A DNA stretch of 64,000 bases from Raillietiella orientalis. Lineage: Eukaryota. The translations under genes were made by a program, and so were the position numbers. Location: NCBI GenBank assembly GCA_036172245.1, contig JAYWIR010000028.1, forward strand, positions 2,542,001-2,606,000, given 5' to 3'. Positions 1 to 63,110 of the stretch are shown here, piece after piece (the stretch's first letter is position 1; the number at the start of each line of letters is the position of its first letter). Under the pieces are notes generated by a model that saw only the letters and a program-made list of their open reading frames with translations, was not told where the DNA came from and searched no databases.

Positions 1-3000
1 TTCCGTGATGAAGGAGGCGTTGGTCGTTAGTCGCCCAGCAGCAAGCGAGGAGGGTTCTCGAGAGATCTGTCTCGCACGCGCAGGAAGAGTTCGGGCGGAT
101 TTCACTTCCCGAACGCTTCGTGCGTTCGGATTCCTGGTAATCCTTCGAGAGGGATTCCAGGCCTCATATGCATCCTCCCCTGTTCCCCATTCCTCAACAA
201 CGCTGTTCTTTGAGAGCAACACATCCCTGTCTTACGCGCAGCCTTTCCACCGAATGGTCCATGGGTCTGTGGGAGATTCCCAACACGAGATCTGTCCCGA
301 TGAGCACATTTCGTGTTCCTCTTGCCGATTTCCTTTTTCCCATACTTCAGGAGGATGCATAGACTGGATGCAATATAGCCCGGCGGTACTGACTGGCTTC
401 TGCCTTTGGAAGCAAGCAGCTCTGGAAAGGAAGAGAACGGAAAGAAAGATGGGTGATTCCCTTGCATTTTCTTCTTCCATCAGCTTCTTCTCGGCACTCC
501 GAAGCGTGGATTCTGGAAAAAGAAAGATTTGGTCCTTTACGAGGTCTGAGAACATCTCAAAGTTCCACTCTTTGTTTTCCAGATGCTGCCTGGAACGAGG
601 CCCGTGCTCGAAGGCGTCTCTTTCTACACCCTTGACAACAAGGGAAACCTTCCAGAAAGTTTCCGAGTGGAACTCGTGAACGCTGCGGCGCACAGCCACT
701 CTGGAACCAAATGCAGGGGAAAAACCTTTTTTAAAAGACGAGGGAGAGAAAGGGGAAATTCCTTGCGCCTATGTATCGAGTGGCTTCCAGTTGATCCTTA
801 CGTCCACTTCCGATTCATTCTCGCACAAGACCCAAGGATGCTCGAACCTTGGTGATTTCGCCACCTTTCCCTCTGGCACAGGTTCTGGCAGCAGCTTTTT
901 CCCCTCTCACTTCTGTGGGAGCATTTCATGTTTCTTCCCTCACCAAAGAAATTCTGTTTCACTTCGGTCCAGAGTTCGTTTCCTGACTTCGCATCTGGAT
1001 ACGCGATTCTGCGAAAAGTTCCCGAAACAAGCTCTGAGTCCCCCTACCCCCACATTAGACTACGGAGCTTCCGTCCTCTTCCCTTCTGCTCTGAAGAAGA
1101 GAAAAGAAGAGATAAGGTCCCTGCTTTTATGGCTTAGACTCTCGAAGACTTTGGATCCCTCTGCTCGAATCTTCGGAGCCAGACTTTTGGGGTCTGGGAG
1201 AGAGCGAGATTCTTTGCACCTACTCTTTTGATGACCTTGGTCTTCCTTGCATCTTACGATCATTATTGATTCTCACTTATTCTCCTATCTCCTCGTGTGA
1301 CATCGTGTCAATCCTCCTTAGCTTTCTGCGATTTCTCTTGCCACATTGCTACACCCAAATTATAGAGAAATTATTATCGAGAAACTGGGATTTTGGAATG
1401 AATGCTACTGTGACGCTCTGATGCGAACGGTCAGTTTCCCTGAGACTGGTTTCCGGGCTCAATTCCCCAACAACTGTATTATCCTCTATTGAGCTGAAGA
1501 AGATCATGGCTTAAAGAGCTGGAGAGTCGTTTTCCATCCCGCTCAAATGCATTCCTTCAGAGTAATGCGGTCGCATCAGTGCAAACCACACAGGGCTGAA
1601 GGAAGAGCAACAGGACATGATTCCACGACCCCAATCTCCACATCTTGGAGCAGAAGTGAGGAAGGAGATCGGCGGCATTCACCGCCGGTTCTGAGAATAG
1701 GAACGGCAAAACTGCATACCCCTGTCCCCGCCCTCCCCCCCAATTTATTCATTTATTGTCCCCTCCCCCCCCCTCCCGTTCCGAACTATCATTGTGCCCG
1801 GCCTGCATGCCGGGAACCCTACTCCCCATCTTCTGTTCCCCTTACCTGGGAACACAGTTCCCAGAAGATATTATTGATAAACGTCCCGGCGCAACCGGGT
1901 AATAAACGACCCCAATCTCACTAGCCAGGGTTAGCTGGATTGGTCATCCCTCAGCGTGCGGAGTCAAAGACCTCCGAGCCTCTTCTGGTTCTTGACAGCT
2001 GCATTTCAGGATACAGCCGAAGACCTCAGTGCTCTCACTACTGCACCATTCCAGTTTCGTGGTGAACATGAAGCATTTTTCATGTCAATGGGGGGAAAAT
2101 CCATGGTTCCCAAAAGCATTCCTTCCTTTCATGTTTATCTCCTTAAACTATTTGCTAAGGCGTTCTCGATAAGAGGAGATGAAGATTTCTCTTGCAGGGA
2201 AAGCTGGAAAATGCATCTATCCGAGAAGACTAGCAGCACAGTTTCTTCTACTCCTATCAGTGCGGCTGTCAAGGTTCCTTGTGATGGCAACATGCAATTA
2301 CTGAGGAGACAATACATGTCCAGATGTCTTTGCTCATCTTGCAATTACCCTGTGGTAGTAGGACCGAGTACCCTCACCCAATTCCGAGGAAGCTCTTCTG
2401 AGGGTCTGCGACGGCATTCTTTGCCGAAAGCACTCTTTTTGGGATGACTGATGCACTCGCTGGATCTCATGGTCTTACTCTGCGCTGCCCTCCTCTGCCC
2501 TTCCTCTGGAGCCAGCCACTGAATTCTCGAAGAGGTAAGCGACGCTCATGATGACGATTGGCCCTTTGCGCTGGGTCACAAATCTAGTCGAAGCGTGGAG
2601 TCCATCCCAGGGATACACTAGTTGGAGTTCAATATTTCTGACCAGCTCTCTCGGCTCAGGTCACCAGTTCATCGTGTTTTCGGGTAGCCGGACCCAAGTC
2701 GCTGATGCGACCATCGAGGACGTGTTCGAGGCACGCTCTCGAAGAAACTCTTTTCGCACTGCACCCCCCTTACACATCTGGTCCATACCATCCGATTGAA
2801 GGAACATCTGTAAGTACTGTAGGCTGGCCTCCACTTTTCCAAAGTACCTGCGCTAGCTACGAGTGATAGTCGTGGTATTTTCGTTCCCAAAAGAAAGAGA
2901 AGAAAGATCCTGAGCTGTCAGAGGAGTTTAAAGAGGAAGAAACGATGTGATCGAGGACTTTGGACACGTGCTGGAGGCATCTTTCAGCGCACTTCTCAAA

Positions 3001-13163: not shown

Positions 13164-13664
13164 TGTTGGCTTTTCAAGTTAGAGGGCAACCCCGTAGGGA
13201 CCACCTTATGAATCCAGGAAGACTCCTCTTACGCTTGGGAGGGAATTTCAATGGGAACCTCTTCCTTATTCTCTCTGGAGGGAACCCCGTAGGGAGGAAC
13301 CGGACCTTCTCGTTTCGTCCCCGAAGGGAACCCGAAAAGGATCCTTCCTGGAATTCCTTCGCCGGAGGGAACCCACAGGGAACTGCTCCTTGTTTCTTGC
13401 TCCGAAGAGAACCCCGAAGGGACGCTTCCGAATTTTCCCTAAAGAGCGCACCCCGACGGGACCGGAGCACTTCTTGACACTCTGGAGAGGATGATAGTCG
13501 ATGAAGGTTTTCCCCCGTAGGGGGTGGAAGAAACGTCTCCATTTTCACAACCGAAGGGGAACACTGAAGGGAACCGGCTCCTTGTTTCCTGGAAGGACCA
13601 GGAGGGTCAGACTGCAATCCCAGCCAATCAACGGGACCACCTGGCTTCCACCAGTGCCGCACCC
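13164..13664 (-). mobile_element. SINE-like element copy A, body with ~40-bp hairpin array (split from its head by a LINE insertion)
   Basis: About 9-10 units of GGAGGGAACCCCGWAGGGA plus a pyrimidine linker; collinear with 49429-49570/50150-50550 and 36961-37140, and with 29970-30340 as reverse complement. Confidence 0.85.
13650..13664 (+). repeat. Left target-site duplication ACCAGTGCCGCACCC
   Basis: Identical 15-mer at 16739-16753; the flanking bases differ on both sides. Confidence 0.9.
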
Positions 13665-13766
13665 TCGAGACGCCGCACGGACGTGTTTTCCGTTAGCTCC
13701 GCGAATGGTACATCGACTTTTCTTTAGTGAGTGGTTCGCGTGGATTCGGTGGTGGCGCAGGCAGCG

Positions 13767-14764
13767 ATGCCTGACACCACCACCAATGAAGGCCAGGGAG
13801 AGATGCCCGCATCTCTTCCTGATACGATGGAACGGCCCTGTCGCCGGCAGCCATGGCTGATTAAAGGGTCTACATTGAGGAGGACTAGAACCCAGTACTC
13901 CTCTACAAGGTAGGCTATTTGTATAGTCCGGAGAGCGCGGCCGCCTTCTCGAGGGCGATGTACGCTCACGGCGTTAAACAAGAGGGCCTTCTCACAATGA
14001 CTATCGGGAGTGGGGACCAGTACGCTGAGGTGGTCTGCAAGAAGACAGACCTTGGCCAACGATTGCTGAGGTCCCCCGTTGCGATGGGCAGCGGAAGTCT
14101 CCTCCCGATCACGGTGGACCGCTCGAAAGTGGTCCACTTTCTTGGAATAACTTTGCGGATGACCAAGAAGAACGTCTGCAACGAACTTGCCAAGTACGCA
14201 ACAGTCCACGCGCTGCAGACGAAGTCCGCTCCCTTCGGGGAACACCGCGAACTTCGGGGGAGCCTCGCGGCAGCGCGAATCATTGTGCGCGACGGCTGTG
14301 GGCTGCCCCACAACATACAGGTCGCCGAGGGAACGGTAGACCTGTGGTACGTGGGGAAACCCAAATATTGCGCGCACTGCAACGCTTCAGGTCATCTTAA
14401 AAAGAGGTGTCCGAGTGTGTAGTGCCAGCAGTGCCACACCATGGGGCACACCAGTGGGGTGTGCCCGCAAAGTATCGTCCGCCTCGCGTCCGCTCGGAAT
14501 GCGAGAAAGCGCACGGCTAAGAAGATTAAAAAATTCGCAGCGAAGGCCGCCAAACAAACCGCTACCTCCGCGTCATCAGACGAGGCTGCCGTATCGACCT
14601 CAGTCTCAAGTGCTGAAAAGGTCGAGGAGGACAGCCAGGACGGATGGCAGGTAGTCCAAAATAAAATAAAGCCTGAAAAAGGCTACGAAAGCAAAAGCGA
14701 TCGCGACACGCAGCGAAAATCCGCCGCGGCGCGAAAAAGCAAAGAGCTGCCGCGTGACCGTTGA
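13767..14764 (+). pseudogene. LINE ORF1 (gag-like nucleic-acid-binding protein), disrupted
   Basis: YVGKPKYCAHCNASGHLKKRC and CQQCHTMGHTSGVC (two CX2CX4HX4C knuckles) separated by an in-frame TAG at 14420-14422; DGWQVV motif; frameshift near 13915. Confidence 0.85.
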
Positions 14765-16492
14765 CCGCATCACCGCCATCGGAAAGCTCAAGAGGCGCAA
14801 GGCTCCAGGGGAGGACGGCCTGCCTGCGGAGTTTTTCCAATGCTTTGCGGCGGAGCTGACCCCCCTGATACAAAAATCGACCCTGCTGATACGCGAAACA
14901 GGCGACGTTCCCGCCTCGTTTCGTTCAGCAAGGGTACGGCTCCTTCCCAAAGGAGGAGACCCACGGAGCATAAGCAACTGGAGGCCGATTACCGTGGTAA
15001 ACGCGGACGCCAATTGCTAGCGACACTGCGGACCGAGAGGCTGGTGCGGTTGGCAAAAAGCTTCATTAGCCCGGGGCAGCCGTATGCTGTTAGCTCCAGG
15101 CGGAGCATGGGCGCCAACCTGCTCTGCGCTAGCACCTGGTTCGTGCTCCAACAGGGAAGGGAGATGATGGGCAACCGGAATTCCGGTGCGTCCGTCGGCA
15201 AAGGGCCAAATGGTCGGGTGGGGGAGGGAGCCCTTGCGGTCGCAGTCGACTTTCACAACGCATTCGACTGCATCGACCAGAGTCTCCTGCTGGAGCTTTT
15301 GGAACGCTTGGGTTTCCCGGCTTCTGTGATGGCCTACCTCCGCTCCTGCTGGTGCGAAGCGCTCGTCAATATCTTTTTCAGCGGAAAGACGGTGCACGGC
15401 GTGCCGGTGCGATGCGGCATACGGCAGGGACACAGCCTGGGCCCCCTGCTCTTTGGCACCTATTTCTAATTGGTGCTGAGGGCATACAGGGAGACTCTGG
15501 CTCTCCAGCCGAACGATTGTCTGGGTGCGCCCGCGGTGTAGGCATACGCGGATGATAATCTGCTGTTGCTCCCCATGTCCACGCCGGCATGCGCACTCGA
15601 CGGTTTCTTCGAGCTGCTCAGTCGTGGAACGGGCCTGTTGGTGAACAAGGCGAAGTCGTCTGTGGTTCCCGCTGACGCGTCGTGGGCAGTACGGCCGGAC
15701 CGGATTCTCCTGGGGATCCCCACGGGCCGGTACTTTAAGAACCTGGGCGTTCCGTTGGAGGACTTTCGCCCCTCAGAAGCCTGATCCGGACGTCTTCAGA
15801 AAGTACTGCAGGAGCTCGGCCCGTTCCAACGGGGCAGGTTCTCCCTGCCGGAGAGGGCCGTGGTATGGAACACGTTTGTGACTCCCCTCATTCGCCCTTT
15901 GCTTTTTGTTTGCCCACCGCCATGCAGCATTGGGAAACGGACAAAGGACCTCCTCCGGATCGCCTTCTGGGGCAAAGGGCAGCCCCGAGTCCGCCTAAAG
16001 GACTTGCGTGCTCCGCGCCGAGACGGCGGCCTGGGCCTCCTGACGCTGTAGCGAATGGAGCTGCGGCTCCAGTTTCGAATCTTTGCCCTCGGGTTCGAAA
16101 CTCATGGACACGGGAGGGGGGTGAACCCAAACTGTGCACGGTGCGGAGAGCAGGAGTCCTTCCCGCACCTCCTGGTAGACTGTGTTGCCCTCCGGCCCCT
16201 TTGGGAACGCTTGGCCTTGGATCTTGGAAGCCCCGACGGCAACTCCAGAAACGTTTTAAAGCGCCTCTTCCTGAGAGATGTCCTCTCGCCGGCCGCACCC
16301 CTAGCAGCACTGTGCTGCCTGCTCGGGATCGTGGCCGCGTGGAACACCAGAGGCCACAACGATAGGGACGCCATCCATTTTTCTGTCCTCTACATAAGGA
16401 CAGCGTCAAGATGGCCCTATCTGGGAACCATAAAACAGGAACTTGCCGGCATCCTTACAAGGATGCAGCGGGCGCCCTCCAACACACAGTGA
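14754..16492 (+). pseudogene. LINE ORF2 reverse transcriptase plus C-terminal zinc finger, disrupted
   Basis: KAPGEDGLPAEFF, NWRPITVVN, VDFHNAFDCID, GIRQGHSLGPLLF, YADD (15545-15556), GLLVNKAKS, FKNLGVP, GGLGL, CARCGEQESFPHLLVDC; one frameshift and several stops. Confidence 0.92.
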
Positions 16493-16738
16493 TCCCTTCC
16501 CGAATCCCTCCCCCCCCCCTCTCTTTGACCATCCTTTTTGACTGCAGTTTTTTTGGTTTGTTCTCCTCTTTTTGTTTGTCTTCCCTTCCCTCGTGCTGTC
16601 GAGGCTCACCCTGATGGCCTGCGTGCCAGATCCCGGCAGGCTCCTTTTCGTATTCATAAGTAACAACGTGGCAGGATCAAATGTCCTGCTACAGACATGT
16701 AGGTTTAGAAATAAACGCCCCAGCGTGACCGGGTGTCA

Positions 16739-16897
16739 ACCAGTGCCGCACCCGAATAGTCCAACCAGCGTCATCTTGAGTGAGGAACTGGAAAACCCAC
16801 GACGCACCAATTTCTCAGCATCGATCCTCCACGTGGGAATTCGAACTCGCAACGCTTGACACCACCCGCGGAGACCTCAGCCGCGAGGCCGCCAACG
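16739..16897 (-). mobile_element. SINE-like element copy A, tRNA-derived head (includes right TSD 16739-16753)
   Basis: The minus strand reads TGGCGGCCTCGCGG (A-box-like)...GAGTTCGAATTCC (B-box)...GATGACGCTGGTTGG...GGGTGCGGCACTGG, as in the other copies. Confidence 0.85.
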
Positions 16898-17299
16898 CAT
16901 GCCATTTGCAGTCTCCAGAAATCACCATCGCGTGGGGCTCCACGTGAAAGCCAGCAGCTGCCAGATAAAGCGTCTGCAGACAAGCAGGCCACTTGTTCCA
17001 CTTCTGGTGCCGCCTAACAGTTGTTTTGGGCGGCTGGCTTTCGCAGTTTTCCTTGCCTCCCCTTTGATACGTGCTAACGGGTAGCTGCGCCGCGGGAGGG
17101 ATGCTGGATGTCCCTACCGGATTCGCACACTCGAAAAGGCGCACTTCGTTAACTGCGAAGTCACCGTGACCAAGCGCGTCCGAGAAACGGAACTTCGGCG
17201 GAGGAAGTCCCCTTCTGGAGGGAAGAGTCCTGGGTGCATCGCTCCTACATAACTTTTTTGCCTCCCGTCTTCCCTGGTTCGACAGGGATCACGGGAGCT

Positions 17300-25277: not shown

Positions 25278-25980
25278 CACCCGGTTTTGTCGGAGCCTCC
25301 ATTATTAAAGAAAATAATAACAAAAGTGCAGCTCAAATATTTAATTGTGTTGAAACACGTGGTTTCACCACGTGCGCAGAACTTGCCGTGACCTACACGT
25401 AGACTGGTCAGGTCCGTTCCCACAGCGACGAAGAAGGAAAAACCGGAGAAAAAAAGAAACAAACAAGAAGAGAAAAAACCGAAGGACAAGTTTCGTTGAG
25501 GATTACTTTTCGCTGGGATGCGTCCTCAGCATCCTATTCAGGATGCTGGCAAGTTTTGTCCATATAGTGCCCAGGTGGAGTCATCTCGAGGCAGTCTTCA
25601 AGAAGATCATCGCCCAGAGGATGGCGCCCCTTTCATTTAGGCCTCTTCTTCTGGCTTTCCACGCCGTCACGATCCCGCAAAGACAGCAGAGAACTGCAAG
25701 GGACGTGGCTGGAGGCAGTGCGGCACTCGCGAAGAGGTGTTTGCAAATGTCCCTGGGACCGACGACCGGGATTCCTAAAGTTATCGAGAGGCGATCCCAA
25801 AGGGGACGGAGGGCGGCACAATCTAGCACAAGGTGCGAGAAGGTCTCCTTCTCGCTGCATCGGCCTCCCCCGTGTCCAACGATAGTGTGCCTTGCACGGG
25901 ATTCCTCAATGCGACACCAGCAACATCAACTCCCGCCACTCGAGGGGGAGTGTGCCACTGTTCCAGCACGCTGGGGATCA
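25278..25980 (-). mobile_element. 5'-truncated copy of the Tx1/L1-like LINE (ORF2 C-terminus and 3' UTR)
   Basis: LDCAALRPLWDRL..SLAVLCCLCGIVTAW..KTASR aligns with ORF 16055-16492; terminal hairpin motif at 25278-25306. Confidence 0.85.
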
Positions 25981-28900: not shown

Positions 28901-29825
28901 ATGTGCAGGATCGCTACTTCAGCTCAAGAGTAGCAGTAGCAGAACCATCTGCAGGATTGCTTTTCTGAAGAAAATTCAAGAAAAATGAGACTGAAAATGT
29001 CGATTGTTATCTGAGTCTGGAAGATAACCATGAATTACGGGAAAAATAAACGCAGGATGCACATGAAAACGGAAGCCTCACGAAACATCCAGCGTTAGTC
29101 AAGGAAAGCACTGTCCACTCCGAAGAAAACGGAGGCGCTCGATTTCGAGAAGCTAAAGTTACGTATCCGCATGATGAGAAAACATCTCGGAAAAGATAAG
29201 GGAGGATCGACCTCCAGTAAGCCAGCCAGCAAATTGGCTTGTCTGAACTCTTAAGAAGTAAATCATACTCGCTGAGAGGAAAAAGAATGGAGCTGCATGC
29301 GAAGGAATAGGCAAGCGGCATCATAGCCCGGAACTCAAGGCATTTTAGAAACCGCGGAAGTCGGTTTCTGTAAATTCCTGGATCTGGAACGGAGGCGGAC
29401 TCCCTACCTCCCTTTCTGGAGCCCTCTCAAACCGCACCACAGAAAATCCCAGCCCTTCCGATTGAATTTTCCTCAAGAACGTGGGGAAGCAACCGCGCGG
29501 AACAAGGGCGTTTTTGCGAAACTTGTAGGTCTTCGGAAAGCCAATCGCCTCTTTGGCTGCAATGACGCAACTCGTGCCGTAGGGCGTGGAAGATCAAACG
29601 TGGACTCCGCAAGCAAGCATACCCTTCATTTTGGAACCTTATGAAATCGTGCCGTCGCTCGCACGGCTTCTGCAGTGACCCCTGTCCGTTCGGTCCAACT
29701 TCGACAATCTCCACTCCACGGCCACTGGCGGCCACACACATCTCCGAACGGTTATACGTGGAACATGCCGTTGGAACACACGTAATGCTGGAGCCTCAGA
29801 AAAATCTGTATGGTCCATTGCCCGC

Positions 29826-30340
29826 GTCGGAGGCCGTGTGGTTACGGTGGTCTCTGCGTGTGGCACCACGAAGAGTCGCGGGTTCGAATACTCCGAAGGA
29901 ATGGGCACATTGCGTCGTGGATTCCCAGTTCACCCCACAGGATGACGCTGGTTGGCCTACATTCATCCGGGTGCGGCACTGGCAGCGGCTGAAACCGGAT
30001 GCCCCCCGATGAGGGCCGGGACAAATGGGAGCCTCCGGGTGCTTCCAGCAATCACGGAGTGGGGGCTCCCCTCCGGTTGTGAAGGAGCGAACCCCCCATT
30101 CCGGGGGGGACCTCTCCTCGTCGTACTGATGGAGTAGGTGTGTCGCCACCACCTGTCCAGAGAGTGCAGAGAAGCGCGCCTATCCCTCCGGGGATTCTGC
30201 GTCCTTCCGGATTTCGGAGGCATCCCTTTTGGGTTCTCTTCAGAAGAGTAAAAGCAGGAGCGGATCCCTTGCGGGGGATCCCTCCGGAGAAGAAATTCCA
30301 GGATCGGATCCTTTCCGGGTTCCCTTCAGAGAAGAAGCTT
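29826..30340 (+). mobile_element. SINE-like element copy B (tRNA head plus hairpin array)
   Basis: B-box GGTTCGAAT at 29881, GATGACGCTGGTTGGCCT at 29941, GGGTGCGGCACTGG, then the hairpin units. Confidence 0.85.
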
Positions 30341-32616
30341 TCAACTTGAACTAAACAGCAATGGAACGCAGGCATTTCGACGTCGTTTGTGGAGGAGGAA
30401 AAGCGTTAGTGAATATTTGCACAGCTGTAACAGAATTCCTGGCTGCGTGTCTCGGAAAATCTCTTCTCGCTCTGAAGACTGAAGATTGCACATCTGAAAC
30501 TTTTGTTGTTGTTTTTTTGGAGAAATTGCACGCGCACTTGCTTGAGGCAAGCTTGGTTTTTGAAACGGCTTACTGAAATCCTCCTTTTCCTCGTTTGAAA
30601 CACGTTCCCCCCCGCCCACCCACCCTTTTTTTCTTTCTTTTCCCAACGCAGGTTCTTGTAGATATTGAAGAGCTTTTCAATCGAGGCTGTGGTATTTCTT
30701 TGGAACGCTCTCTTTAGCCTCATTCCTTCGCCGTGATGGGAACGGAGCGATCCGAGCACCCGTTTCCGGGTGTATGTGATCGATTTCCCCCCTTTAATAT
30801 TCACTTGGAGTAATACAAGGAATACGTTAGTCCTTGCTTTCGTGCTATAGACGTGCTAGGAAAATATGATATCATTTTCCAGAGTTGGGAGTCGTGCTGG
30901 GTTTCAATAAACGATCAATAATTATCTTTTGGCATTTTGATTCCTGCTGGCGATCCTGCTCACGGAAGTTTCGTGAGTGCTCCCTCCTCCCTTCTAGCAG
31001 TCAAATTCGCTCCAGAGGGAATGCAAGCAAATCGTGAAGGGTTCAAGTAAGCATCAAAGGGTATCGGAAGTTTTTTGCTTCTTTTGTTTCTGTTTGTTTT
31101 TTTCGTTTTTGCCCAAGGAAAAATTTCGAGTTCCTTTCATAAAACTCTGGAATGCGAAGCCTCCGCCTCAACATCGAGGGAGAGTTACGAGGAGAAAAGG
31201 ATATTCTGCAAGTGGAAAATGCCCGACTTGGCATCCCTGATTTGGCACATCGTTTTTTACAGGGATGCGAATACCGATGCTTGTTTGCTGCTACCACATT
31301 TCGAGAACGCAGTGGCGACTTACTTACTTACTTACTTACTTGCGTGGTATTCATCCGAACAGTAAACTTACTAGCTGATCTTGTATTGCACCTTTCTTCA
31401 TATTTTGGAACATCGGCACCGTGCAAGAGCGATTCCAGAAAATAACAAGAAAGCATCTCGGTTGTTGCTATACTAATGATGAAAAGTCTGCGTTACTTTG
31501 AAAGAATACAGTAAACTGAACACAAATTTTGTCATTATAATTTCTCACATGTTCTCTTATCGAAGATTCCGTCATTCTTCTGTCACGAATGCGCCATTCC
31601 GGAAAAGAATAGATTCTCCCAGAGTTACTGCACAATTATATATATCACTTTCTTCATCGATACGTATGTGTTCGGTAGTGCATAGTGAGTATCTGTTTCT
31701 AAGTACGTAGTTATACAGTCGTGTATCCGTGAGAAGATGTGATCAACATATATATATACGTATGCGTATGCGTATGTGCAGTAGTCAAGCACTTACACCT
31801 TTCACCCCCAATATGCGTAGAATGCTCTCTCTCCCAGTCAAACGCGGTGGTATTCGAGAATCTTCTGTAGTTAATACATTTCATCATCAAAATTCCTGTT
31901 CACCAGATCCATGAACGTTGAAAGGGTTCAATAGCAGGAATCACGGATATTCTTCACCGATAAGCCCAGAAGAATTCCTTGGTGTAGGGGAACATCGCAC
32001 GGAAGGGGTCTTCAAGCAGTTTTATTGATAATAAAGTTCTTGTAGAAGCACTTGAAGGAAGGTACTCTTGACACAGAACTCGTAATCGATGAAGTCTCCT
32101 TTACATCAAAGGAACATAAGCAAGTACTTAATAATAGGCGAGCACCCATGTGAAGACTTCAAAGTCGGCTCTCGAGTTCCGCATACTGTCTTGGAATAGG
32201 TCCTGTCACTTGTAGTTTGGAAAATCCCAAGAAAAATGGCTTTGTCAGCTGAGTCGCTGTGCTGTCTGGGCATTCTTTTCGGTCATGCTTGTTACTCCCA
32301 CACGACAGTGGGAGGGCAACTGAAAATAGGCTTCAGAAGAATCGAGGATGATGGGCTAGAAACTGAGAAGGCTACCGCAGCACTTTCCTTTCGTTCTTCC
32401 GTTGTCATCACTGGAGACCTCAAGAGCGCACTGATGAAGACGCCGTGATGGGAATCAGGGAGAATGCAGAATCTTCTCTCACTCTTAAGAATGGAGACAC
32501 AGCAAGTTAACTCTGCCAACAAAAGGATCGTCTGCTCCTTCATGAATGGAGGTGAAGACTGAAAAGTCTCTGCAAAGAGAGGTTTTTTATTACTACTCCG
32601 AAGACTGTTGCATTTT

Positions 32617-35600
32617 CATCCGGTCACACCGGAGCGTTTATTGTAAAAAAATATCTACAAAAAAAACACAGTCATATGCAAGATAAGGAATGTCTTCCTT
32701 CGTAGTGGTTTCACATCACCATTACGAAGGGAGGTGCCTCGGAGGCCCTGCTTCTCGTGAACAGCTTCGCAATGAGGTTCGCACAGGAGAAGGGGGGGAG
32801 GGAAGGTAAACAGACGAAAAAACACCAGAGTTAAAAGGTTTAAAAATGTTTGGGAGAGAGAGAGTGAAGGGATCGCAGATTCCTTCCTGGCGTCCTCAGC
32901 AACCTCTTGAGTATGTTGGTAATTTCCTCCTTTTCTTAGCAGAGAAGTGGTCATCTTGTCGCCTCCCTCATGAAGAAGCAGATGACTGGGATGACCTCAC
33001 CGTATGACTGGCCTCTTCCAGCGCTGCTTCTCACCGCCCCGATCCCACAAAGGCAACACAAAGGTGCAGGGAAAGCTGCAGGAGACTTCGCGTCGCGCGC
33101 AAAGAAGCACCGCAAAACCTCTTTGCGGATTGCCCATCGGGAGTGGAAGAGCGGCAACAAAGTGTTCCCGGACATTCAGGAGGGCAAGGCAATCCAACAA
33201 CAGGTGCGGGAAGGTTTCCCCGTTTCCCACACCTGGCATAGCCTATGGCCGCACTCTCCCTCGTCCACTGGTTGACTCGTGCGTTGCTGGGATCGCCCGG
33301 TGCAACAACTACAACGTCGAGTCCTGCCACTTCAGGGGAAGCGAGAGATGTCTACTGCATAGGCAACGAGGAGAATGAGAGTTGATAATTCTCAGGTCTG
33401 TTGCGTAGTTGGAGAGTTGGGGAGATGCACAGAGGCAAACTCGTGCCTTCTCATCGAGATCCAGTCATCTTCCATCTTACCTATCCCTAAATCATTCCTG
33501 GGAGCTCCCTCGCGAGGCTCGAACATCCTGTAAATCTGGGGTTCTCAAGGGCAATCGCCTAAAGAGACTTCCACCAGGCAGGCCCACAGTGTTTTCTCGT
33601 CTCTCTTGGACACTCGAGAGACTTCGATCAGCGCGAGCTAGGAGCTTTCCCAGGATGTAACAACGTTGGACCTGAGAGATCCACAACCCTCGCAGTCAGG
33701 AAAAGTACCAAGGACCACCACCCGCATCACGTCCCGTTCCTCTGATACTTTCCAGCCTCTTTCAGTTAACGGGCCCGGCCCGCTGGTCGCCAGAGTCACT
33801 TTTATCCTCCGGAAAGCCGCTCTTCTTTCTGGGGCAGCATTGGAACCACAACGAGGCTTGCAGGAAGAACGCAGGCAAAAGAAACCTGCGGCTCAGTGAG
33901 GCGCCTGACGCCGCCCTGGTTAGAAGTTTCCGTCCTCAGGAGCACACGGGCGAGTAGAGGTGCCACCGGCCCCTAATTCTGCAAGGAGGGGCTTGAGGGA
34001 CACGGAGAGAGACAAATGCAAACTTGCCTGCTTGACTCCCTCGGGACACTGGAACGCCCCGAGTTTCAGTCGAGCTACGGACGCGCTGACCGAACACCTT
34101 TAATGCGTTTACCAACCAGCTGGAGCCGCGAGCCGCGAAGGAGGTGGGAAGGGATGCAATTCACGAACGAGCTTTCCAAGGATGGGGAGGAAGCAGTGGA
34201 TGGTGACGAGGTCAGCGTCCTCTGTCCGGCGCTCCAGGAGCAGAAGGCAAACCCACGAGCCACTGCTCAACCGGAGCACCCTCCACCACTGATGCAGCTC
34301 CGAGCACAAAATGCGCAGACTAAAGTCCGGCTGTGGAGTTCCCTCCTCCCCTTCCCTTCCCGAGTGTGCGGAGAAGGAGAACCCGAGCTCCGCCGAGAAG
34401 TGGGAATAAATCCCTCGACTCCTATGACGAAGGGACAACCACGGTGAGAGTAAACTCATGGAACCGCAGGGGAGCTTCGAGTAAGACGCGATCCCTCGGC
34501 TCACGCCTCCTTCGCAAGCCCCGGCGGAAAGAGCACATTCCCAGAGTCCAGAAAAAGTGGCTTCGCACTTGGGATTCCCAGAAGTTCGATACTGCTTGGT
34601 CGTCCCCTTTTCGAGAAGACCTCCTTTGGAGTCCTCGCCCCAAGATATATTAGAAGCCCTCCCCGGTTCCTCATCGCGGACTCGTCCCCCTCCTCCATCC
34701 CCCAGTGGTCCGCCCAAATCATCCACGGAGCGCGCAGTCTTCCCGGCGCTCCCGGCAGTCGCTCTCTGGTGACCGGACGCCGGAGGAAAATTCCGCCTTC
34801 TGCTATCAGGTTGCCCTCTCACTTCTTAGGCTCGTTTCGGGGAGCGAGCTGCCGCTTCCCACCCTGACAAAGTCGCTGTTATCTTTAGGACGACCGCAAT
34901 GCATCCCCCTACCTCAATCACCCCTTCGAGCTGGCAGTCCTATCACCGAAGCGGTAATCCCGGCACTCCTGCTGCTGCTGCTCTCTGAATCCGCCTGCCT
35001 CCCGCAGGTTGCATGGACTCGCGTGCCTTGTAATCGTCCTCTCTGGTGCGTCTGGACGCGTGCAGGTTCCCTTCTTAACGGACTTCCTAGAGGTAGTCCT
35101 GTGTGACAGTGCGGCAGACAAGCTTCCCTTTCACTCTTCAGGTTGTCTTTGTATGTCCCACGGAGGAACTTGGCACTTACTCCCCCCCCTCTCTCCTCCT
35201 AAGGAGGGAGGAAGTGCTGAACAACCTGCTGTGGAGTGCTTTTTCCAGACGTGCTGTCGCATTCGTCCCGAAAAAGCAGCCCTCCACCAGCAGGTTGTCG
35301 CGCGCATAGCTTGGTACTTCGTGGTCATCCTCTCTTCCATCTTCACAGAGGGGCTTTCTTCTTTCCCATCATCTTGAGGCTTTGGCATCGTTTACGGCCT
35401 AGACATCATCGAGGGGTAGTCGGCCCCTCGCGCCGCTGGCATCCTCTTGTTCTCGGCTAAGTTGGCGGGAGCACCGGACGCGCATAGTTTGCTTTTCTTG
35501 GCGCTCCTGGTATTCCGCCTTCGACACCGTTAGCAGTGCCCGACGAACGCACCCTCCGGCATCCAGCTGTTTCTCGTGGTCCTTCGGCAACTTTCAACTC

Positions 35601-36530: not shown

Positions 36531-36960
36531 CGCATCGGGCGGCAGGAACATCTCTAGGCATTCGACGACCTACGATACTAGCTGACTTCCTTGGACGAGC
36601 GCACCCACAGCACCGTGAAGCAGTTACCATGAGCACCGACATGACCCAGATGACTCTGACTTTCTGCTCTGCATCTCAGCGTAGCTGATTCAATCAGCCA
36701 GCACTATCTCAACCACCGTGAGGTCGAGGTCGCTCATCTGTGCTCGGAGAAGGCCTCATTCGTTCATCCGCCTCAACAGCCTCTCCGGAGAACGTGCGCC
36801 GAGAGGAAAACGCCCATTCGAGGGGAGGAGGGATGAGTTTTTCCGCAGCCAGTCTCTCCCTCTGGCAGTACGTGTCCTTCCGGGATCGGCCGGAGAAAAC
36901 GGTGGGACCGATCGCCACTGGTTGTGGCGTGCGAGCTCCCTTCCCCTTTCTTCTTCCACC

Positions 36961-37290
36961 TTAGAGGCAATTCCTGAGGAGAGTATCAACCAGCTCCATG
37001 GTACGCTATCGTACGGATCCATTTTCACCACCGGAGGGAAACTCCGTAGGGAACCACCTCCTTGACTCTTGCGAAGACCCTGGAGGATCAATTTCTAATC
37101 CCGGCCGATTAAGGGGGGCATCCGGCTTGCACTGGTGCCGCACCTAGAGTCTCCAGGTCAACCAGCGTTATCCTGTGGATAGGACTCGAAACCCACGATG
37201 CATCCCCCATTTCCCGGTGTCGACCTTTCACGCAGGGATTCGAACCCGCAATGCTTCGCACAACGCGCTGAGAATACACGGCCGCCGATG
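36961..37290 (-). mobile_element. SINE-like element copy C
   Basis: Minus strand GCGGGTTCGAATCCC, a second B-box-like GGGTTTCGAGTCC, and GATAACGCTGGTTG; body collinear with 50365-50560. Confidence 0.85.
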
Positions 37291-38599
37291 AGGGCGAGGC
37301 TTCCTTCCGGGGTCCATCCTGCCGCGCAAGGGAGGGTAGGTGGGAAGAGAGAGATGACGGTGCGGTGAAGGAGGAATTTTCCAGGTATCTTTTGATCACA
37401 GCGTTGGATCGAGCGAAGAAGGGCGCCTCGTCCAGCCTTCTTCGCCACCGAGACAGATGGTGCCTTCAACGCAGCACCCACTGGGGAGGCGCCAGAGCCC
37501 TTCCTCACGTGCTTCCTAGATGCACCAGGAGGGAGCGAGAACTGTCGAGTTTCGCATTGGGCGTCGAAACTCGAGACTTGCCCGAATGAATGTTCATCCC
37601 TTCCATCCGCCTTCTCTCTGGAAATCTTCGGCTCCTCCCGGGAGGAGGTGAAAGCCGAAATGGAGGAAGAGTGCCGCCATCATTCCCATGAGCCATTCCC
37701 AGTCGCTGCGAACTGCGGAGGAATGGCCCCAACTGGGACGTGAAACACCAGGAAGCCTCGGGTTGATTGTGGTTGGACTTGCTCGGAACCCGCAATAGGA
37801 GGAGCCTCGTTCCTTCCACTCCCGTCCCTGCAGAAAGCCCCTGGAAATCACGCTTATCATCTAATTCCTATTTACTTCTTCACCGTTCATTTCCTCTCTG
37901 GTTCTGTCTCCAGTGAGGTTTGAGTCATTTGTTTTTGAGTAGGGCTGCGTCCGACCGTGTCGGACACTTCCTTGGATCGAAGACTGGGAATGAAGAGTGC
38001 CCTCCGCTCGTTGTCCTCATGAATTCCCGGACGTTCTGAGGATTCTATTTGTTTATTTCAAATAGATGGTCAGAACATCCAGGATGAGAAGGTACCTTCT
38101 GCTCTTGGAAGAAATGGTAGCAGCAACGCGCGTTCCATCTCCAGCACGAGCAGGGAGAGCACACCGATGAATGTCTTCCTCTTCTTGAAATCCCTCAACG
38201 CCTAACAGTAACGATTCTTTCGAACTGGAACGCTTCCAGAAAGAATCCTGCTCTCCTGCGTCGACAGCGCTCTAACACTGAATCAGAGGAAAGAGCAGAA
38301 TGTTCTTGCAATTTCAGCGTTTATCCCGATTCCGTCTCCCTCTGAGATCCATCCCTTCTCCGACATAGGCTGACACAGAACAGGAATGAAAGCCCTACAC
38401 TCAAGTGGGTGACTGCGCGATGACTTTGTGGCCAAAACTTTTCTTGCGAAACGCACATGACTGTCGCGATTCAGAGCCGCCACCTTTGTTTTTGCCTTTT
38501 TTGGAATGCCATGGTGATGAATGGAAGCAGGAAATGGAGAATCGAGAACTGTCCGACGTCTGTCAATCTTGTTAACTTATTCCAGGGGTGCGATGATTT

Positions 38600-40600: not shown

Positions 40601-41949
40601 TTTCATCAGAAGCATTTCTTCTGAAGATGCCAAGTCATGTAAAGAGCAGAAGCATTCTTCTACTGATTTTCAAAAGAGCAGGCGTTGATGGTTTAGTAAA
40701 GATGGATCCTCCTGCAAACACGCTCGCCGTCGCCACCGGAAGAGCTTTTCGAAACTGTGCCAGATCCCGTGCCCACTAGTGGACCGAGATTCCCTTCGTT
40801 AAAGGTAGACCGTATGAAGGGAATCGTTATGCATTCCAGGAAGTGACCAGAGAATCGACGGGGTGCCTGTTTATGCGGAAGGGACTGACCACCTGTCGCA
40901 GAGGTTGAGGAGGTGCACAGCGCTGACGGCATCGAAAAGTCTAGTCCCCATTGGGTAGAGGGAGGTACCACTCACCCCAATGCCGATGAGGATGTCTGAG
41001 TGGCTTCACCTAGGAACAGAATGAAAGTGGAATAACTGTCTCACACGTTTGATATGAGCCAGTTATGCAGAGGTCACAAGTGAGCAACTGATCACCCATT
41101 CCCATCTTCCCTACAAAGGTCCATTCGATTCTGGCATTTATTTTTATTTTAGTTCTCTCTCAACCCCGTTGCAAATCTCATTGGAAATCGACCAGCCAGA
41201 TGCAAGCTGGACTTTAAAGTCACCTAAGATCATTCTACTTTGTTTGTTTATCTTGCTTGGTCATTGCACGTCGGTGATTAGAACGAACGCCCGGACGTGA
41301 CCTTTTCATCTCAGATAGCCGAGCCATTCATTTAAAATAAACAAATAAATAAAAACAAGTGGCGTTAAATACCGATGTGTACCCACAGAGGTAACCCTCA
41401 CTGGGGTCAGAAGTAGGAAGGAGTGGAAAAAGGAGACGACGGAAGGAAAGGGAAATGAATAAACAAAAAGGAAATGGGGTGGACTGGACTCTCGGTACTC
41501 ACCATGATTCCCGAATCCGTTCATCGGATTGGAAATGGATGAGAGGGTGCTCATTGGTGTCGGTATAGTCTGTCCATAACCACCAGAAGGTTATCTTGAA
41601 CCTTCCCTTGAACTCTGGATTGTGGGCGTGCTTCTTGGATGAAACTTCGGTCTACAGATAGGAGGTGTCACTCCGTTTCCATCAGGTCAGGTCGTTTATT
41701 TCTTGGAAAAATGAACTTCCAAACAACTCTGAAACGAGTTCCCAATGGTTTGGAAGTTCATTTTTGGAAGAGAAACAGCTGTAAGCCCACGGGGAGGGAT
41801 CATCGAGACTCAGGTCGAGAACAAGCCGACTCCGGATCGGGAGGAAAGGGACAATAAGAGATCGGGGAGAAGGAATGGGGATGCTTTGAACAGGGATTTT
41901 GCTTCGCTGTGGTGCACTTCTTCTCCGTTACAACCTCCTCAAAAGATCA

Positions 41950-42480
41950 GGTGAGTTCCATGGGGATTTCTTTAGGCAGGTGGGGGTCACCTCTCTATCC
42001 TCATGAAGAAGGCAGCTAGACGAATGACTTCCTGTTGCCACGAGCGGAGCTTCAGCACAACACGAGGTGTCCTCCGTCGAACAGAAAATGCCTTGGACCA
42101 CGACGCAGTAGATGTTAATTGCACGGCAGATCCTTCCGTCAGGAGCACTCCCGATGAGATCGCCTACCACTGTGGTGAAAACAGGTTCAGACGGCGGAGG
42201 AAAGATGTCTTTGCTAGCCTTTACTGCCAATGGAGACTCGACGCAGATCTGCCTCGAGACGAAAACTAAGGAGATGCCCACCATCTGTACCCTGTCCTGA
42301 TACGAATGCAAGCAAAGCTGGAATATGCTGTACAGTAATCGTGAACTCCTGTTAGGAATAAGGTCTTCGAAGTTGTCAGGAAAGTCAGTTCACATGATAA
42401 AATCAGTGAAAATTGAAGTGGAGGGGAGAGGGAGGACCATTTCGACCGGCTGCCAGGATCCCTCATCCACGGTGGCTTCG
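41950..42480 (+). mobile_element. Decayed Gypsy RT N-terminal fragment
   Basis: RSPTTVVKTGSDG (cf. ASP.V.VKK.DG), MPTI, KVF. Confidence 0.35.
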
Positions 42481-42485
42481 CCCAC

Positions 42486-42590
42486 GTTGGAGGCCATGTG
42501 GTTGCGGTCTCCACGCGTGGCACCAAGCGTCGAGGGTTCGAGTCCCCCCTCAAGATGACGCTGGTTGGCCTATTCGGGTGCAGCACTTGT
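42486..42590 (+). mobile_element. SINE-like element copy D (head only, single B-box)
   Basis: TTGGAGGCCATGTGG..GGGTTCGAGTCC..GATGACGCTGGTTGGCCTATTCGGGTGCAGCACT. Confidence 0.85.
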
Positions 42591-42655
42591 TGACACCTAG
42601 TTGCGCCGGGGCGTTTATTTATAAAAAATAAACATTACCAAAATAAACAAAAACC
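42591..42655 (-). mobile_element. Extreme 3' end of the Tx1/L1-like LINE, joined to SINE copy D
   Basis: Minus strand AATAAACGCCCCGGCGCAACTAGGTGTCA, followed directly by the SINE target site as at 16710-16753. Confidence 0.75.
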
Positions 42656-43849
42656 CGGGTGAAAGCTCATCTCTCTTCGACATCAGGTATTCCCGCTCTC
42701 GTCGTCCCTCCCGGTGGAAATTCGCTCGCTTCGTCCGTCGGTCGCGCTCCGCTTTCCATCGTCCCGCAACCGACAGACGGCTCCAGGAGCGGAGCGCTCT
42801 CTTCCAGGTGCCCTTCGGGAATGGTGGCACCTGGAAGAAAGCGTCTCCGCGTCTCAAATCAGTCCGCTGCTTCATCCCGCGTCCCGGCGCGCGGAGGGAG
42901 GGAGAGGAGGGAGACAGCTGGCCACTTCGCGTCCTCCCTCCCCCACACCGCGAACGGCAGGGCCCCGCCGCTGAGACTCGCGCGGCGCGCGGGCAGCCCG
43001 GCACCTCATGGACGCGGCGTCGCCCCAGTCGGGCTAAGCTGCTAAGAAAATTTATGGGGACCGAGCTCCCCTCCTCCTCCCCCGTCTCCAATGGCAGCTT
43101 GTTGACAGCTCGCTTGCGAAAGCTAATAAAAGCGAAATTTTCCTGTAGCATAATGGGGACGGAGAAGGGGGGAGGGAACTTCTTTTCCACTGGTTCTGCG
43201 GACCGAGGAGAGAGGTTCGGGAATCGGACTGATAGAGGGCCGCCGGCTATTTGCCATGAGATCCGATAGGAGCGCGAATGCAGTAAGCCACTGCTAGTTA
43301 GCTGAGGACTCCTGGGTCATTCCTGCCTGCCTGGGTGCCTGAGAAAGTTAGGGGAATCCCATCCTTCACTCTCCCTCCCCCTCACCTTCCTTGTGCAGCG
43401 TTAGCCATGCCCAAATGAGAAAAGATGACTTGCGAGGGTCCCAACATCCTTGCTAGGGGGAGGGAGAGAGATAGAAGGAGGACAGAAGCTCATTACAGGA
43501 GAGAACAGGAATGCGCATTTTCTTGCCGATAAGGACATCTGCATCCTACCCCAAGGTCTTTGATGTTCTCATTAAAAGCATCATTTGAGATGTGTGCGTA
43601 TCTTAAAAGAATAGATCACCCCATTACACAGTAGCTAGCTGCTGCTTTGCATCCAATTAAAGTGGAATGATCTTCATTTTCAAGCACATGAGAACTTTTG
43701 CTTCGAGGGAAATTGTTACACCTTTCACGAAATCTGTATTTCGAATTCTTCTTTCCTTGAGAGCAACTGGAGGATAGGGGCATGCCGCGAAGAGAGGAGG
43801 GAAGGGGGGGCGATTAAGAAAGTATCACATAGTGATACGTGCAACCGTA

Positions 43850-45002: not shown

Positions 45003-45516
45003 CGGCGCAGCTTCCCAGAGAAAATTCCAGGAGAGCTGCACCCTAAAAGTTCTCAATAACCCTTGAAGGCTGTTCGATCATCCTTTCGGGAGACACACAA
45101 AGAGAGGTAGCGGTAGGGAGTGGAGGATCTTTCCACAGGTTCCGTCGATTCTTCTATCTCTCCCTCTTTGCTTGCCATTGAAGAGCTGTTGCATGGCGGA
45201 TGTTCAGGAACGGGTATGTTCCATAGTTTGGTGAGGGACTAGAGTTTGCTTTCCAGGAAGCCAAAGGCCTCCAAAGAATGACGAGACAGAAACTTTAGAC
45301 TGACTGCTGCAGCCATGGATGAAGTAAGAAAAGCAAGTGATTATTTGCCGTCCCAAAGACTTCGTTTCAGACGGCGCAGCTTCCCAGAGAAAATTTCAGG
45401 AGAGCTGCATCCCAAAAGTTTTTAATGGACTCTCGAGAGCATTGGTTCGATCATCCCTTCGGGAGGCGCATAAAGGAATTTAGCGGCGTGGAGCGAGAGA
45501 TCTTTCCACAGCTTCC
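45003..45516 (+). repeat. Diverged direct repeat, ~140 bp (45003-45143 and 45372-45516)
   Basis: Both copies begin CGGCGCAGCTTCCCAGAGAAAATTYCAGGAGAGCTGCA and end GATCTTTCCACAGSTTCC; offset 369 bp. Confidence 0.9.
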
Positions 45517-49059: not shown

Positions 49060-49350
49060 TTTGAGAGGATGCCACCCTCAGCATCCGCTTGCGGAACCGA
49101 GAGCCGCGGGTTCGAATCCCCTGAAGGCGATCGACTTCCGAATTCGGATGAGCCGCATGTTTCGAGCCCCTAAGCAAGATGACGCTGAGTTGACTCCAGG
49201 CTTCAGGTGTGCATGGATAGGGCACCGCGGTGTGCACCTGCTGCGCTCCGATGCTCTGTTGACTAGCCAAGCTTGGGAGAGGACCCTTCAGCGTTCTCTC
49301 CGGGAAATACGAGAGCGGTCTCTCCTCTTCGTGAGCACCTCCGACGCGCG
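49060..49350 (+). mobile_element. SINE-like element copy E (head plus start of body)
   Basis: GCGGGTTCGAATCCC (~49106), TTTCGAGCCC and AAGATGACGCTG, then sequence matching the reverse complement of 13553-13640. Confidence 0.75.
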
Positions 49351-49428: not shown

Positions 49429-50697
49429 TGTTAACTCCTCAAGATAGAGGGTTCCCTGGGGGAGAACCACCTTATGAATCCAAAAATGGCTCCGGAAGAG
49501 GGGGTCCGTTCCTTTCACGCCTAAGAGGGTTCCCCGAAACGACCCTTCCACCCTCGTTGTCTCTGATCTCCACCCGGATACGCGGGGAGTTTATTGAAAT
49601 TTAAAAGAAACAAATTGTGGTAGAACACGTGGTCCTACCACACTCCGTTTGTCCATGGACATTCCGGGTCGCCGGTGAGCGGACCGGCAGGGCCTACCTC
49701 GGCAGCAGAGGGGAATGGGAGAAAACAAAAAGAAAAAGAAAGAGTAAATAAAAATAAACAAATAAAAAGCTTTGGGAGGATCGGGAAGAGATCACTGTCC
49801 ACTGCATCCTTTCCAGGATGCCACCTAGGTCGGTCCGAATAGGCCCCAGGTGTAGGCCATCTGGCTGCTATCCGCACAAAGCGAACTGCGAACTGGACGG
49901 CGGCCCTCTCGTTTCCTCCTCTGTAGGCTTCGCGCTCCAGGCCGCCACAATCTCGTGGATGCAGCAAAGAGCTGCTAGTGCTGCGGCTGGCTGCAGCGCG
50001 TCCCGCACAAAGAGAAGCCGTGAAACGCCCCTGCGGGTGTCAACCGGTATCTGGAGGGTCGTTCTGAAACGTTCCTATAGGGGTCGGAAGGCAACATAGT
50101 CCACGAGCAGGTGCGGAAGGGATTCCCGTTCCCCGCACTGAAACGGTCCAGACTCACTCTCCCCAGCGTCTCCGAAGGGAACCCCGAAGAGATCCTCTTC
50201 CTTATTCTCTCTAGAGAGACCCTCCTAAGGGATCCGCTCCTGAAATTTCTTCTTCGGAGGGAGTCCACCGCTCCTTGTTGCTCCTCTGAAGAGAACCCCG
50301 AAGGAACGCTCCCAAATTTTTCTGAAGGACGCTCCCCGAAGGCGGCAGCGCGCTTCTTACACTCTGGAGAGTCAACCCCTCGAAAGAGAGATCAACCAGC
50401 TCTATAGTACGCCATGGTACGGCTTCATTTTCACCACCGGAGAGGAATCCCGAAGGGAACCATCTCCTTGATTCCTGAGAGGATCCCGGAAGGTCAACTT
50501 TCAATCCCGGCCAGTCAAGGAGGACATCCGCTTCCACTGGTGCATCCGAAACCTACAGACCAACCAGTATCACTATGCCGGGGGACTCGAAACCTACGAC
50601 GCACTCCCCATTTTTGGCGTCGATGCTTCGCGTGGGGATTCGTGCCCGCAGCGCTCGGTACCACGCTCAGGGGCCTCAGCCACGCGGCCGCCATTAT
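49429..50697 (-). mobile_element. SINE-like element copy F (49429-49570 plus 50150-50697), interrupted by a LINE 3' fragment
   Basis: ACCACCTTATGAATCCA shared with 13200; array units collinear with 13255-13600; tRNA-like head at 50560-50697. Confidence 0.85.
49571..50150 (-). mobile_element. 5'-truncated copy of the Tx1/L1-like LINE
   Basis: Minus strand encodes CGERESLPHLLVD..AALAALCCIHEIVAAW; T-rich 3' UTR; terminal AATAAACTCCCCGCGTATCCGGGTG (49571-49595). Confidence 0.85.
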
Positions 50698-51249
50698 GGG
50701 CTTCTAGAGGGAATTCTAGACCATTTGAAAAGAAAAAAGAAAATGAAAAAAAAAAGATCGAGGAAAAACGTAGAAAGCAGCAAAAATGAATCAGTATTTT
50801 TAGATCACTAGTAACGATCTTTTCTGAGGTCACTACTGATCTTTAAAAACAAAAAAAAAAGCAAAAAATAAAGAAAAATAAAAGTCAGGGATCTCCATGG
50901 ATGTCGTGAACTGGAACGATCCGCGAAAGCCTCTTCGAAAGAACGACCTAATGCAGTCAAAGATGCAGCTGGGACCTGGAGGTGGCTACTGCCCTGGAGC
51001 GCGAGCCTCCTCTTATTTCAAAGTGGCGATTCCCTTTCCTCTCCTTGCTGAGAAAAACTGCTTCATCCTGCCAAAATAAAAACAAACACGAACACTTTGA
51101 AAAGCAAACGAAAACGAAACAGTCGACTTTCTTGACTGGTACAGTGCTCTCCCTCAGGAAGACGCTCCGGGCTCTTCAATTGCAGCACGGGTACGTCCGC
51201 ACCAGACCCTCTTCCAGAACGAGTGGAGTCAGGTGCAGAGAGTAGTGAG

Positions 51250-62431: not shown

Positions 62432-62463
<32 letters not shown>

Positions 62464-62516
62464 GCACGCACGCACGCACGCACGCAGACGCACACGCACG
62501 CACGCACACACACACA
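62432..62516. repeat. (CA)n/(CACG)n compound microsatellite
   Basis: Seen directly. Confidence 0.98.

Positions 62517-63032: not shown

Positions 63033-63034
<2 letters not shown>

Positions 63035-63110
<76 letters not shown>

Follow-up and report, generated by a model that had tools for sequence, protein, structure and literature searches.

The 3' end of an L1-clade LINE meets the same base of a SINE-like repeat, each time in antisense to the repeat, at two places in a 64-kb stretch of the Raillietiella orientalis genome. This stretch, the whole 64,000 nucleotides analysed here and called the window below, is eukaryotic, 52% G+C and contains many decayed repeats; the two junctions, near 16.7 and 42.6 kb, lie 26 kb apart and are mutually inverted in it. 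The recurrence of the junction is not chance. A search with a 26-nt LINE-tail pattern, allowing up to 3 mismatches, found exactly two sites in the window compared to none in 100 shuffles. The leading reading of the double junction, to which we give about an even chance of being correct, is that LINEs inserted independently at a preferred site in the repeat.

The recurrent junction

A preliminary description of the window had quoted a string beginning with AATAAAC at each junction, and both strings were found where it had placed them (from 16710 on the plus strand and from 42619 on the minus strand). The similarity between the two junctions extends further than these strings, with 16704-16805 (+) and 42625-42527 (-) being 84% identical over 102 nt in an alignment that is unbroken across the junction (blastn E 5e-23; 84/102). 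The boundary that had been drawn between LINE and SINE was right to within 3 nt. We accept this placement because the end of the LINE tail recurs at seven sites, all seven tails in the window ending in ...CCGGGTG. Only in the 16.7-kb and 42.6-kb copies is this end followed by TCA and the antisense SINE-like repeat. The coordinates of the elements involved are collected in Table 1.

Table 1. LINE copies, copies of the SINE-like repeat (c1 to c6) and junction features in the 64-kb window
Feature	Position	Strand	Evidence or remark
LINE A, decayed L1-clade non-LTR retrotransposon, 3.07 kb	13665..16735	+	RT region about 14721-16090
LINE tail A	end 16735	+	inside repeat copy c1
Target-site duplication, left copy ACCAGTGCCGCACCC	13650..13664	.	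15/15 identical to 16739-16753
Target-site duplication, right copy ACCAGTGCCGCACCC	16739..16753	.	15/15 identical to 13650-13664
TCA between GGGTG and right duplication	16736..16738	+	also at 42591-42593 (-)
LINE tail fragment joined to c5 via TCA (42591-42593)	42594..42633, end 42594	-	LINE 3' profile 42633-42594
LINE E, 5'-truncated, nested in c4 tail, same orientation as repeat	49571..50170	-	profile 50170-49571
LINE 3' end H, outside repeat	1746..1901	+	end 1901
LINE 3' end B, outside repeat	25278..25878	-	end 25278
LINE 3' end F, not joined to repeat head	32617..33271	-	end 32617
Decayed LINE 3' fragment I, outside repeat	41001..41303	+	end about 41303
c1 head and body	16739..16905	-	nhmmer head profile 16919-16740, E 7e-49; antisense to LINE A
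c1 remainder ("rest"), other side of LINE A	13164..13664	-	nhmmer rest profile 13648-13189, E 2e-101
c2, uninterrupted (empty site)	29817..30421	+	nhmmer head 29796-29982, rest 29991-30421
c3, uninterrupted (empty site)	36701..37317	-	nhmmer
c4, junction site uninterrupted, tail carries LINE E	50155..50720	-	blastn and nhmmer
c5, 5' end to junction, no "rest"	42480..42590	+	nhmmer head 42480-42547, 42528-42589
c6, decayed head copy	49084..49210	+	nhmmer E 5.5e-15

The LINE and its 3' tails

The identity, strand and 3' end that had been assigned to the LINE are supported by matches to reverse transcriptase (RT) and by the seven matching tails. Within LINE A, the Pfam RVT_1 model matches in 14765-15466 (E 5.4e-6; 26.7 bits, under the cut-off of 29.6) and zf-RVT gives a weak match in 16052-16489. 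Furthermore, tblastn with P0001, a metagenomic protein of 619 aa, gave 65-84% identity over 14769-16090. The best PDB match of P0001 is human L1 ORF2p, with an E value of about 1e-39, while R2 reaches only 1e-15. Judged from these sequence matches, the RT of LINE A is of the L1 type. A cluster named Tx1 also appeared at rank 22 in the Atlas (score 0.88), which is a lead only and not a placement.

The longer relatives of P0001 run to about 1100 aa and up. Most of the relatives with precomputed domains combine an endonuclease with RVT_1, and many also have zf-RVT; PF03372 is present in many of the relatives listed. No endonuclease domain was detected in 13665-14720 of LINE A, a frameshifted and decayed copy, when open reading frames of at least 125 aa were searched with Pfam, and tblastn with 7 full-length relatives likewise gave no endonuclease match in this decayed region. 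Viral contigs yielded no usable loci related to P0001. A relative of the LINE RT, 26% identical, is encoded on a 1801-nt contig (L022) of an uncultured Rickettsia MAG; the bin was probably contaminated with host or eukaryotic DNA.

The 3' profile match of LINE A covers 16102-16735, and its 3' UTR terminates in AATAAAC, a small hairpin and GGGTG. LINE tails were located by profile, pattern and Hamming scans of the 64-kb window. The preliminary description had counted six LINE ends, three of them touching the SINE; the three in the repeat are borne out, and the total is seven. All seven tails have the same layout of AATAAAC, about 19 nt, and GGGTG. None of the seven has a 3' poly(A) tail, with at most 2-4 A-rich bases following GGGTG; the bases found there are TCA at the two junctions and G/A-rich at the other five tails.

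The 19-nt segment contains a 5-bp stem (CCCGG/CCGGG) in which 82% of the cells are paired, versus 18-53% when the partner is slid. Two of the stem pairs have changes on both sides (compensatory changes), and of 500 column shuffles, 20 pair at least as well. These comparisons lend modest support to a conserved LINE 3' hairpin. The 3' end of eel UnaL2 reportedly has a small conserved hairpin as well. The tails are also better preserved than their surroundings, with a divergence of 15-23% (counted on the tail alignment) versus 33-40% in the rest of the 3' UTR. An AATAAA followed by a GC hairpin, with the end about 20 nt downstream, would fit an end set by cleavage and polyadenylation.

Tail H (...CCGGGT) is followed, in window 1876-1915 (+), by AATAAACGACCCC, in which the opening 13 nt of the tail are partly repeated. 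Either a partial tail in tandem or renewed copying of the template at the LINE 3' end could account for this. Among both the LINE tails and the repeat copies, differences are mostly C/T or G/A at CpG, for example GCGCGAC to GCGTGAC or GCGCAAC, which suggests CpG methylation and decay in this genome. Such changes recur easily, so trees built on short sequences are unreliable.

The SINE-like repeat

The repeat into which the LINE tails run was found six times in the window by blastn and nhmmer. It is non-coding and interspersed, its six copies have a common 5' end, and together they occupy about 3 kb of the 64 kb, or roughly 5%. Full copies are about 650-700 nt long, which is the upper length limit for SINEs. 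As an example of the match between copies, the remainder of c1 aligns by blastn over 13272-13671 with 50169-60.

Two B-box motifs resembling GGTTCGA(A/G)TCC were spotted by eye in the repeat head. These B-box-like modules are about 60 nt apart and lie at 16790-16860 (-), 29880-29950 (+), 37160-37230 (-) and 50560-50640 (-). The element had been described as a SINE with a Pol III head, a claim that goes beyond these motifs, as tRNA models fail on the head. ARAGORN at default settings reported no tRNA genes in the window and none on the majority consensus of the repeat. With Rfam, the window had no match reaching the gathering score, and c4 and c2, two of the six copies, had no tRNA match at E<=10. 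Since no tRNA model fits the head, the repeat is called SINE-like here. The preliminary description had also put forward that such a head, lying antisense at the end of a LINE, might give rise to RNA directed against that LINE, which is speculative.

A LINE-tail-like 26-mer in sense orientation, allowing up to 9 mismatches, was not found at or near the ends of the copies, the 3' end of the repeat being provisional, and the ordinary partnership in which a SINE and a LINE share a tail is therefore not seen. A metagenome scan with a 19-nt repeat motif returned 21 loci, all of which match the motif and a few further bases only and are chance matches. The scans of viral contigs gave 5 chance loci for the repeat motif and none for the LINE tail.

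Two other repeats occur in the window. One is an inverted pair of short-period repeats (62432-62516 and 63012-63079) that show 80-90% identity in many registers, over lengths of about 45-65 nt, and the other is a direct repeat of about 140 nt with 79% identity (45003-45143 and 45372-45516), its copies 370 bp apart.

The insertion at 16.7 kb

LINE A is a genuine target-primed insertion in situ, antisense to the repeat. This conclusion rests on three features, namely the 15-bp duplication, the presence of both halves of the repeat at the flanks and the existence of empty-site copies. The duplicated sequence, ACCAGTGCCGCACCC, is identical at its two ends. Both halves of c1 are on the minus strand; placed end to end, they are colinear with c2, c3 and c4, the uninterrupted copies. 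The target on the primed strand, ...CACTGGT/GG, is not T-rich; the classical L1 endonuclease site is T-rich.

The junction at 42.6 kb

The second junction is much shorter on the LINE side. Repeat copy c5 runs from the normal 5' end of the repeat at 42480 to the same junction base, 42590, and the LINE is recognisable for about 36-40 nt only, with 42594-42619 matching the 26-nt tail pattern with 3 mismatches. A longer LINE fragment at this site was considered and rejected, the candidate sequence being T-rich and of low complexity only (124 and 224 of 300 shuffles reach its score). In the antisense direction the palindromic stem of the tail (CCCGG...CCGGG) folds into the same stem, which is followed by GUUUAUUU. 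An A-rich tract (42625-42655) then follows the unit in the sense of the repeat.

What flanks the 16.7-kb insertion was looked for here as well. A profile search beyond the LINE fragment gave no match to the "rest" of the repeat, and local alignment of the c5 flank with the rest of four copies gave scores reached by 46, 83, 198 and 107 of 300 shuffles. The best candidate for a flanking duplication around the unit is 11/14 (42470-42483 and 42723-42736), which is not significant.

Copy c5 also has a private 56-nt deletion between its two B-box-like repeats. This deletion spans exactly the inter-module segment, as if recombination had occurred between the two modules. Decayed fragments of LINE 3' UTR occur within 1.6 kb of the junction, at 41846-42032 (-) and 41001-41303 (+), so the junction sits among clustered LINE debris. 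Beside it is a 233-codon open frame (42618-43316, minus strand), very rich in GC and CpG and with no Pfam match, which, instead of being a gene, may represent a CpG-island-like region.

A possible site preference of the LINE family

The seven LINE ends in the window divide into two at the same repeat base, one (LINE E) elsewhere in the repeat, and four in other sequence. LINE E confirms an earlier statement that the end at 49571 lies inside the SINE-like repeat at another site. It is in sense to the repeat, its sequence aligns with that of LINE A (blastn 16141-16735 with 50138-49571), and its flank at 49429-49493 matches 13164-13226 (blastn), i.e. repeat sequence. With the repeat covering about 5% of the window, the binomial chance that 3 of 7 ends would lie in it is about 4e-3.

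The flanks of the other five LINE ends were compared with the repeat head, and 58, 289, 67, 248 and 167 of 300 shuffles reach the respective scores. A profile alignment that runs into the flank of LINE H was rejected as repeat sequence on the same measure (58/300). Separately, a marginal match to the "rest" profile was seen at 32473-32563 (-), with E values of 0.21 against the window and 0.0055 against the flank set. It lies about 50 nt beyond LINE end F and could represent a fourth LINE end near a repeat fragment.

Independent site-specific insertion was one of the two explanations that had been offered for the recurrent junction. The true insertion at 16.7 kb speaks in its favour, but strict specificity is weakened by the five of seven ends that lie elsewhere. 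The LINE family is at most site-preferring, not strictly site-specific, on a tiny sample (n = 7).

One insertion event or two

Under the leading reading, one L1-clade LINE subfamily would have entered the same position of the repeat on more than one occasion through target-primed reverse transcription, each time antisense to it. The 42.6-kb junction would then record a separate insertion at the same nick site, in c5 or its ancestor. This second copy would have been 5'-truncated to about 40 nt, and the distal part of the repeat would have been lost by deletion, either at integration or later. A junction of a common type would naturally turn up twice in a repeat-rich window.

The comparison of c1 and c5 bears on whether the two junctions had one origin. 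In the repeat half, over the 106 alignment columns that c5 covers, the difference is 18.9% (20/106 sites) between c1 and c5, 16.0% between c5 and c2, and 21.7% between c1 and c2. In the 26-nt tail, counted by eye, LINE A differs from F at 4/26 positions and from the c5 tail at 5/26. The preliminary description had proposed comparing trees of the two halves. This was done with the copies in the window (six repeat copies and seven short tails), and the quartet bootstraps conflict, supporting c1 with c5 at 60% or c5 with c2 at 82% depending on the outgroup. The two junction-bearing copies are thus not demonstrably sisters.

Two further observations argue for separate histories. The 15-bp duplication at 16.7 kb is perfect, whereas c1 and c5 are 18.9% divergent, and the LINE insertion therefore looks younger than the split between c1 and c5. 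If c5 had descended from the filled 16.7-kb locus, about 3 differences would be expected in the 15-mers, and a perfect match would have a probability of about 0.81^15 = 0.04; including TCC/TCA, which makes the duplication 18 bp long with one mismatch, raises this to about 0.08-0.12. In addition, c1 and c5 cease to resemble each other at the repeat's own 5' end, the point where similarity also ends in every other copy, which argues that c1 and c5 are separate retrocopies of the repeat and not the products of a segmental duplication.

Several observations weigh on the other side. Independent insertions are disfavoured by the 42.6-kb copy, which has neither a duplication nor the "rest" of the repeat, so that an extra deletion is needed. 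A preferred site is made less convincing by a target that is not T-rich and by a LINE copy in which no endonuclease domain was detected, and also by the other five LINE ends, which share no target with the junction site. Finally, both junctions carry TCA after GGGTG, which fits common descent. The TCA could instead be the true end of an active LINE subfamily (...GTGTCA), the other tails coming from copies with 33-40% divergence.

The spread of a composite unit had been put forward as the other explanation. It is still a contender, with its 3' transduction form weakened by similarity that stops at the 5' end of the repeat. In the version that survives best, which we consider unlikely but worth serious attention, the LINE/repeat junction formed a single time and the 42.6-kb copy arose by retroposition of a composite RNA. 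The RNA would have started at the internal promoter of a repeat disrupted by the LINE, stopped in the antisense LINE tail at the GC hairpin and TTTATTT, and then been reverse-transcribed elsewhere. The 42.6-kb unit has the expected extent, from the 5' end of the repeat to about 36-40 nt into the antisense tail, where the same stem and GUUUAUUU are found, and it is followed by an A-rich tract in the sense of the repeat. Such an origin would also account for the TCA common to both junctions and for a unit without the repeat "rest" and without a LINE-type duplication. However, if the source was the 16.7-kb locus, its perfect 15-bp duplication must be reconciled with the 18.9% divergence (p about 0.03-0.08), and if the source was at some other locus, the same base must still have been hit twice. 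A retrocopy should moreover be flanked by a target-site duplication of its own, and the best match around the unit is the non-significant 11/14. TTTATTT is not a canonical Pol III terminator, and yet it would have to end the transcript, which would start in a repeat head that is not recognised as a tRNA. It is also unlikely that source and retrocopy would lie 26 kb apart unless the family is large, and a single such copy is seen in 64 kb.

An extension of the composite-RNA model, which we regard as improbable, would make the 42.6-kb unit the first observed member of a SINE subfamily that arose from a LINE-disrupted copy, with the reversed LINE tail as its 3' module. If this were true, the antisense stem and GUUUAUUU could serve as a Pol III stop and at the same time mimic the LINE 3' recognition hairpin, and an antisense-tailed SINE could be mobilised by the very LINE that interrupts it.

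A local copying event at the DNA level is distinctly unlikely. Here about 190 bp across the 16.7-kb junction would have been copied in inverted orientation to 42.6 kb, e.g. by templated repair or by ectopic gene conversion between repeat copies. The short distance of 26 kb between two inverted junctions is in keeping with such an event, as are the identical junction with its identical TCA and the missing duplication and "rest" at 42.6 kb. The boundary of the copied segment would, however, have to coincide with the natural 5' end of the repeat, which has a chance of roughly 5%, and the similarity does not extend past the elements into their flanks. Local copying also conflicts with the perfect 15-bp duplication at 16.7 kb, and in the repeat half c1 and c5 do not group demonstrably as sisters.

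A 3' transduction is very unlikely. The 16.7-kb LINE would have been read through into the antisense repeat, and a 5'-truncated copy of this transcript would have been inserted at 42.6 kb. L1 elements do transduce 3' flanks, the relatives of the RT are of the L1 type, and the order of LINE tail and then flank is as expected. The transduced segment must nevertheless stop exactly at the 5' end of the repeat and include none of the flank at 16.9 kb, and at that end there is neither an A-tail nor an AATAAA. No flanking duplication was found around the 42.6-kb unit, and the perfect 15-bp duplication at 16.7 kb conflicts with a transduction as it does with local copying. Two random insertions that merely coincide can be dismissed, because hitting the same base in the same orientation of a repeat of ~700 nt, given two hits, has a chance of about 1 in 1400, and the enrichment of LINE ends in the repeat comes on top of this.

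Related systems and significance

The leading reading of the double junction, independent insertions at a preferred site, would be a known kind of behaviour, as a preference of Tx1/L1-type elements for a site within another transposon family has been documented (Kojima 2015, PMC4494074). In crocodilians, the Tx1-Mar families and SINEU are inserted at one position of Mariner-N4_AMi (Kojima 2015, PMC4494074). The two systems are alike in that a LINE of the APE-type L1/Tx1 group recurs at one position, in a fixed orientation, within another repeat family, with nested copies that have a target-site duplication of 15-16 bp. They differ in that only 2 of the 7 local LINE ends are at the site here, with 5 elsewhere, in a single 64-kb window, and in that the target is a SINE-like retroposon rather than a DNA transposon.

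The LINE tails have parallels of their own. Among L1-clade LINEs of the stringent type, LINE1-1_ZM and L1-1_CR have 3' ends with a small conserved hairpin (Ohshima 2012, PMC3472496). Similarly, the tail in the window is better conserved than the 3' UTR and contains a 5-bp stem with compensatory changes. Unlike these elements, the LINE has no partner SINE with a sense tail in the window, and the support for its hairpin is modest.

Like L1 3' transductions and U6/L1 chimeras, the 42.6-kb copy holds a LINE tail and non-LINE sequence in one unit. Chimeras of the U6/L1 type have their second RNA on the 5' side of the LINE tail, with both parts in one orientation, and L1 transductions carry source flank and a poly(A) tail. 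The 42.6-kb copy fits neither of these layouts. If it did arise from a composite RNA, it would resemble SVA and SINEU, in which a small-RNA-type head and the foreign sequence attached to it move together. In contrast to these elements, there is a single candidate copy here, its foreign part is an antisense LINE tail, and no duplication was found. A keyword search of the open-access literature returned no report of a SINE with an antisense LINE tail, which is not proof of absence.

In its present state, the finding is a well-documented nested insertion with one recurrence, which helps in the annotation of repeats and would not surprise specialists. If the site preference is real, it would mean that an L1-clade LINE homes in on a single base of a resident SINE-like repeat, in a single orientation, adding to the short list of LINEs that land in other transposons. 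Such a LINE would provide a clean natural system for studying target selection by an APE-type endonuclease or by the 3' end of the RNA. Furthermore, each insertion would inactivate a copy of the repeat, and the preference would thereby bear on how transposon families limit one another.
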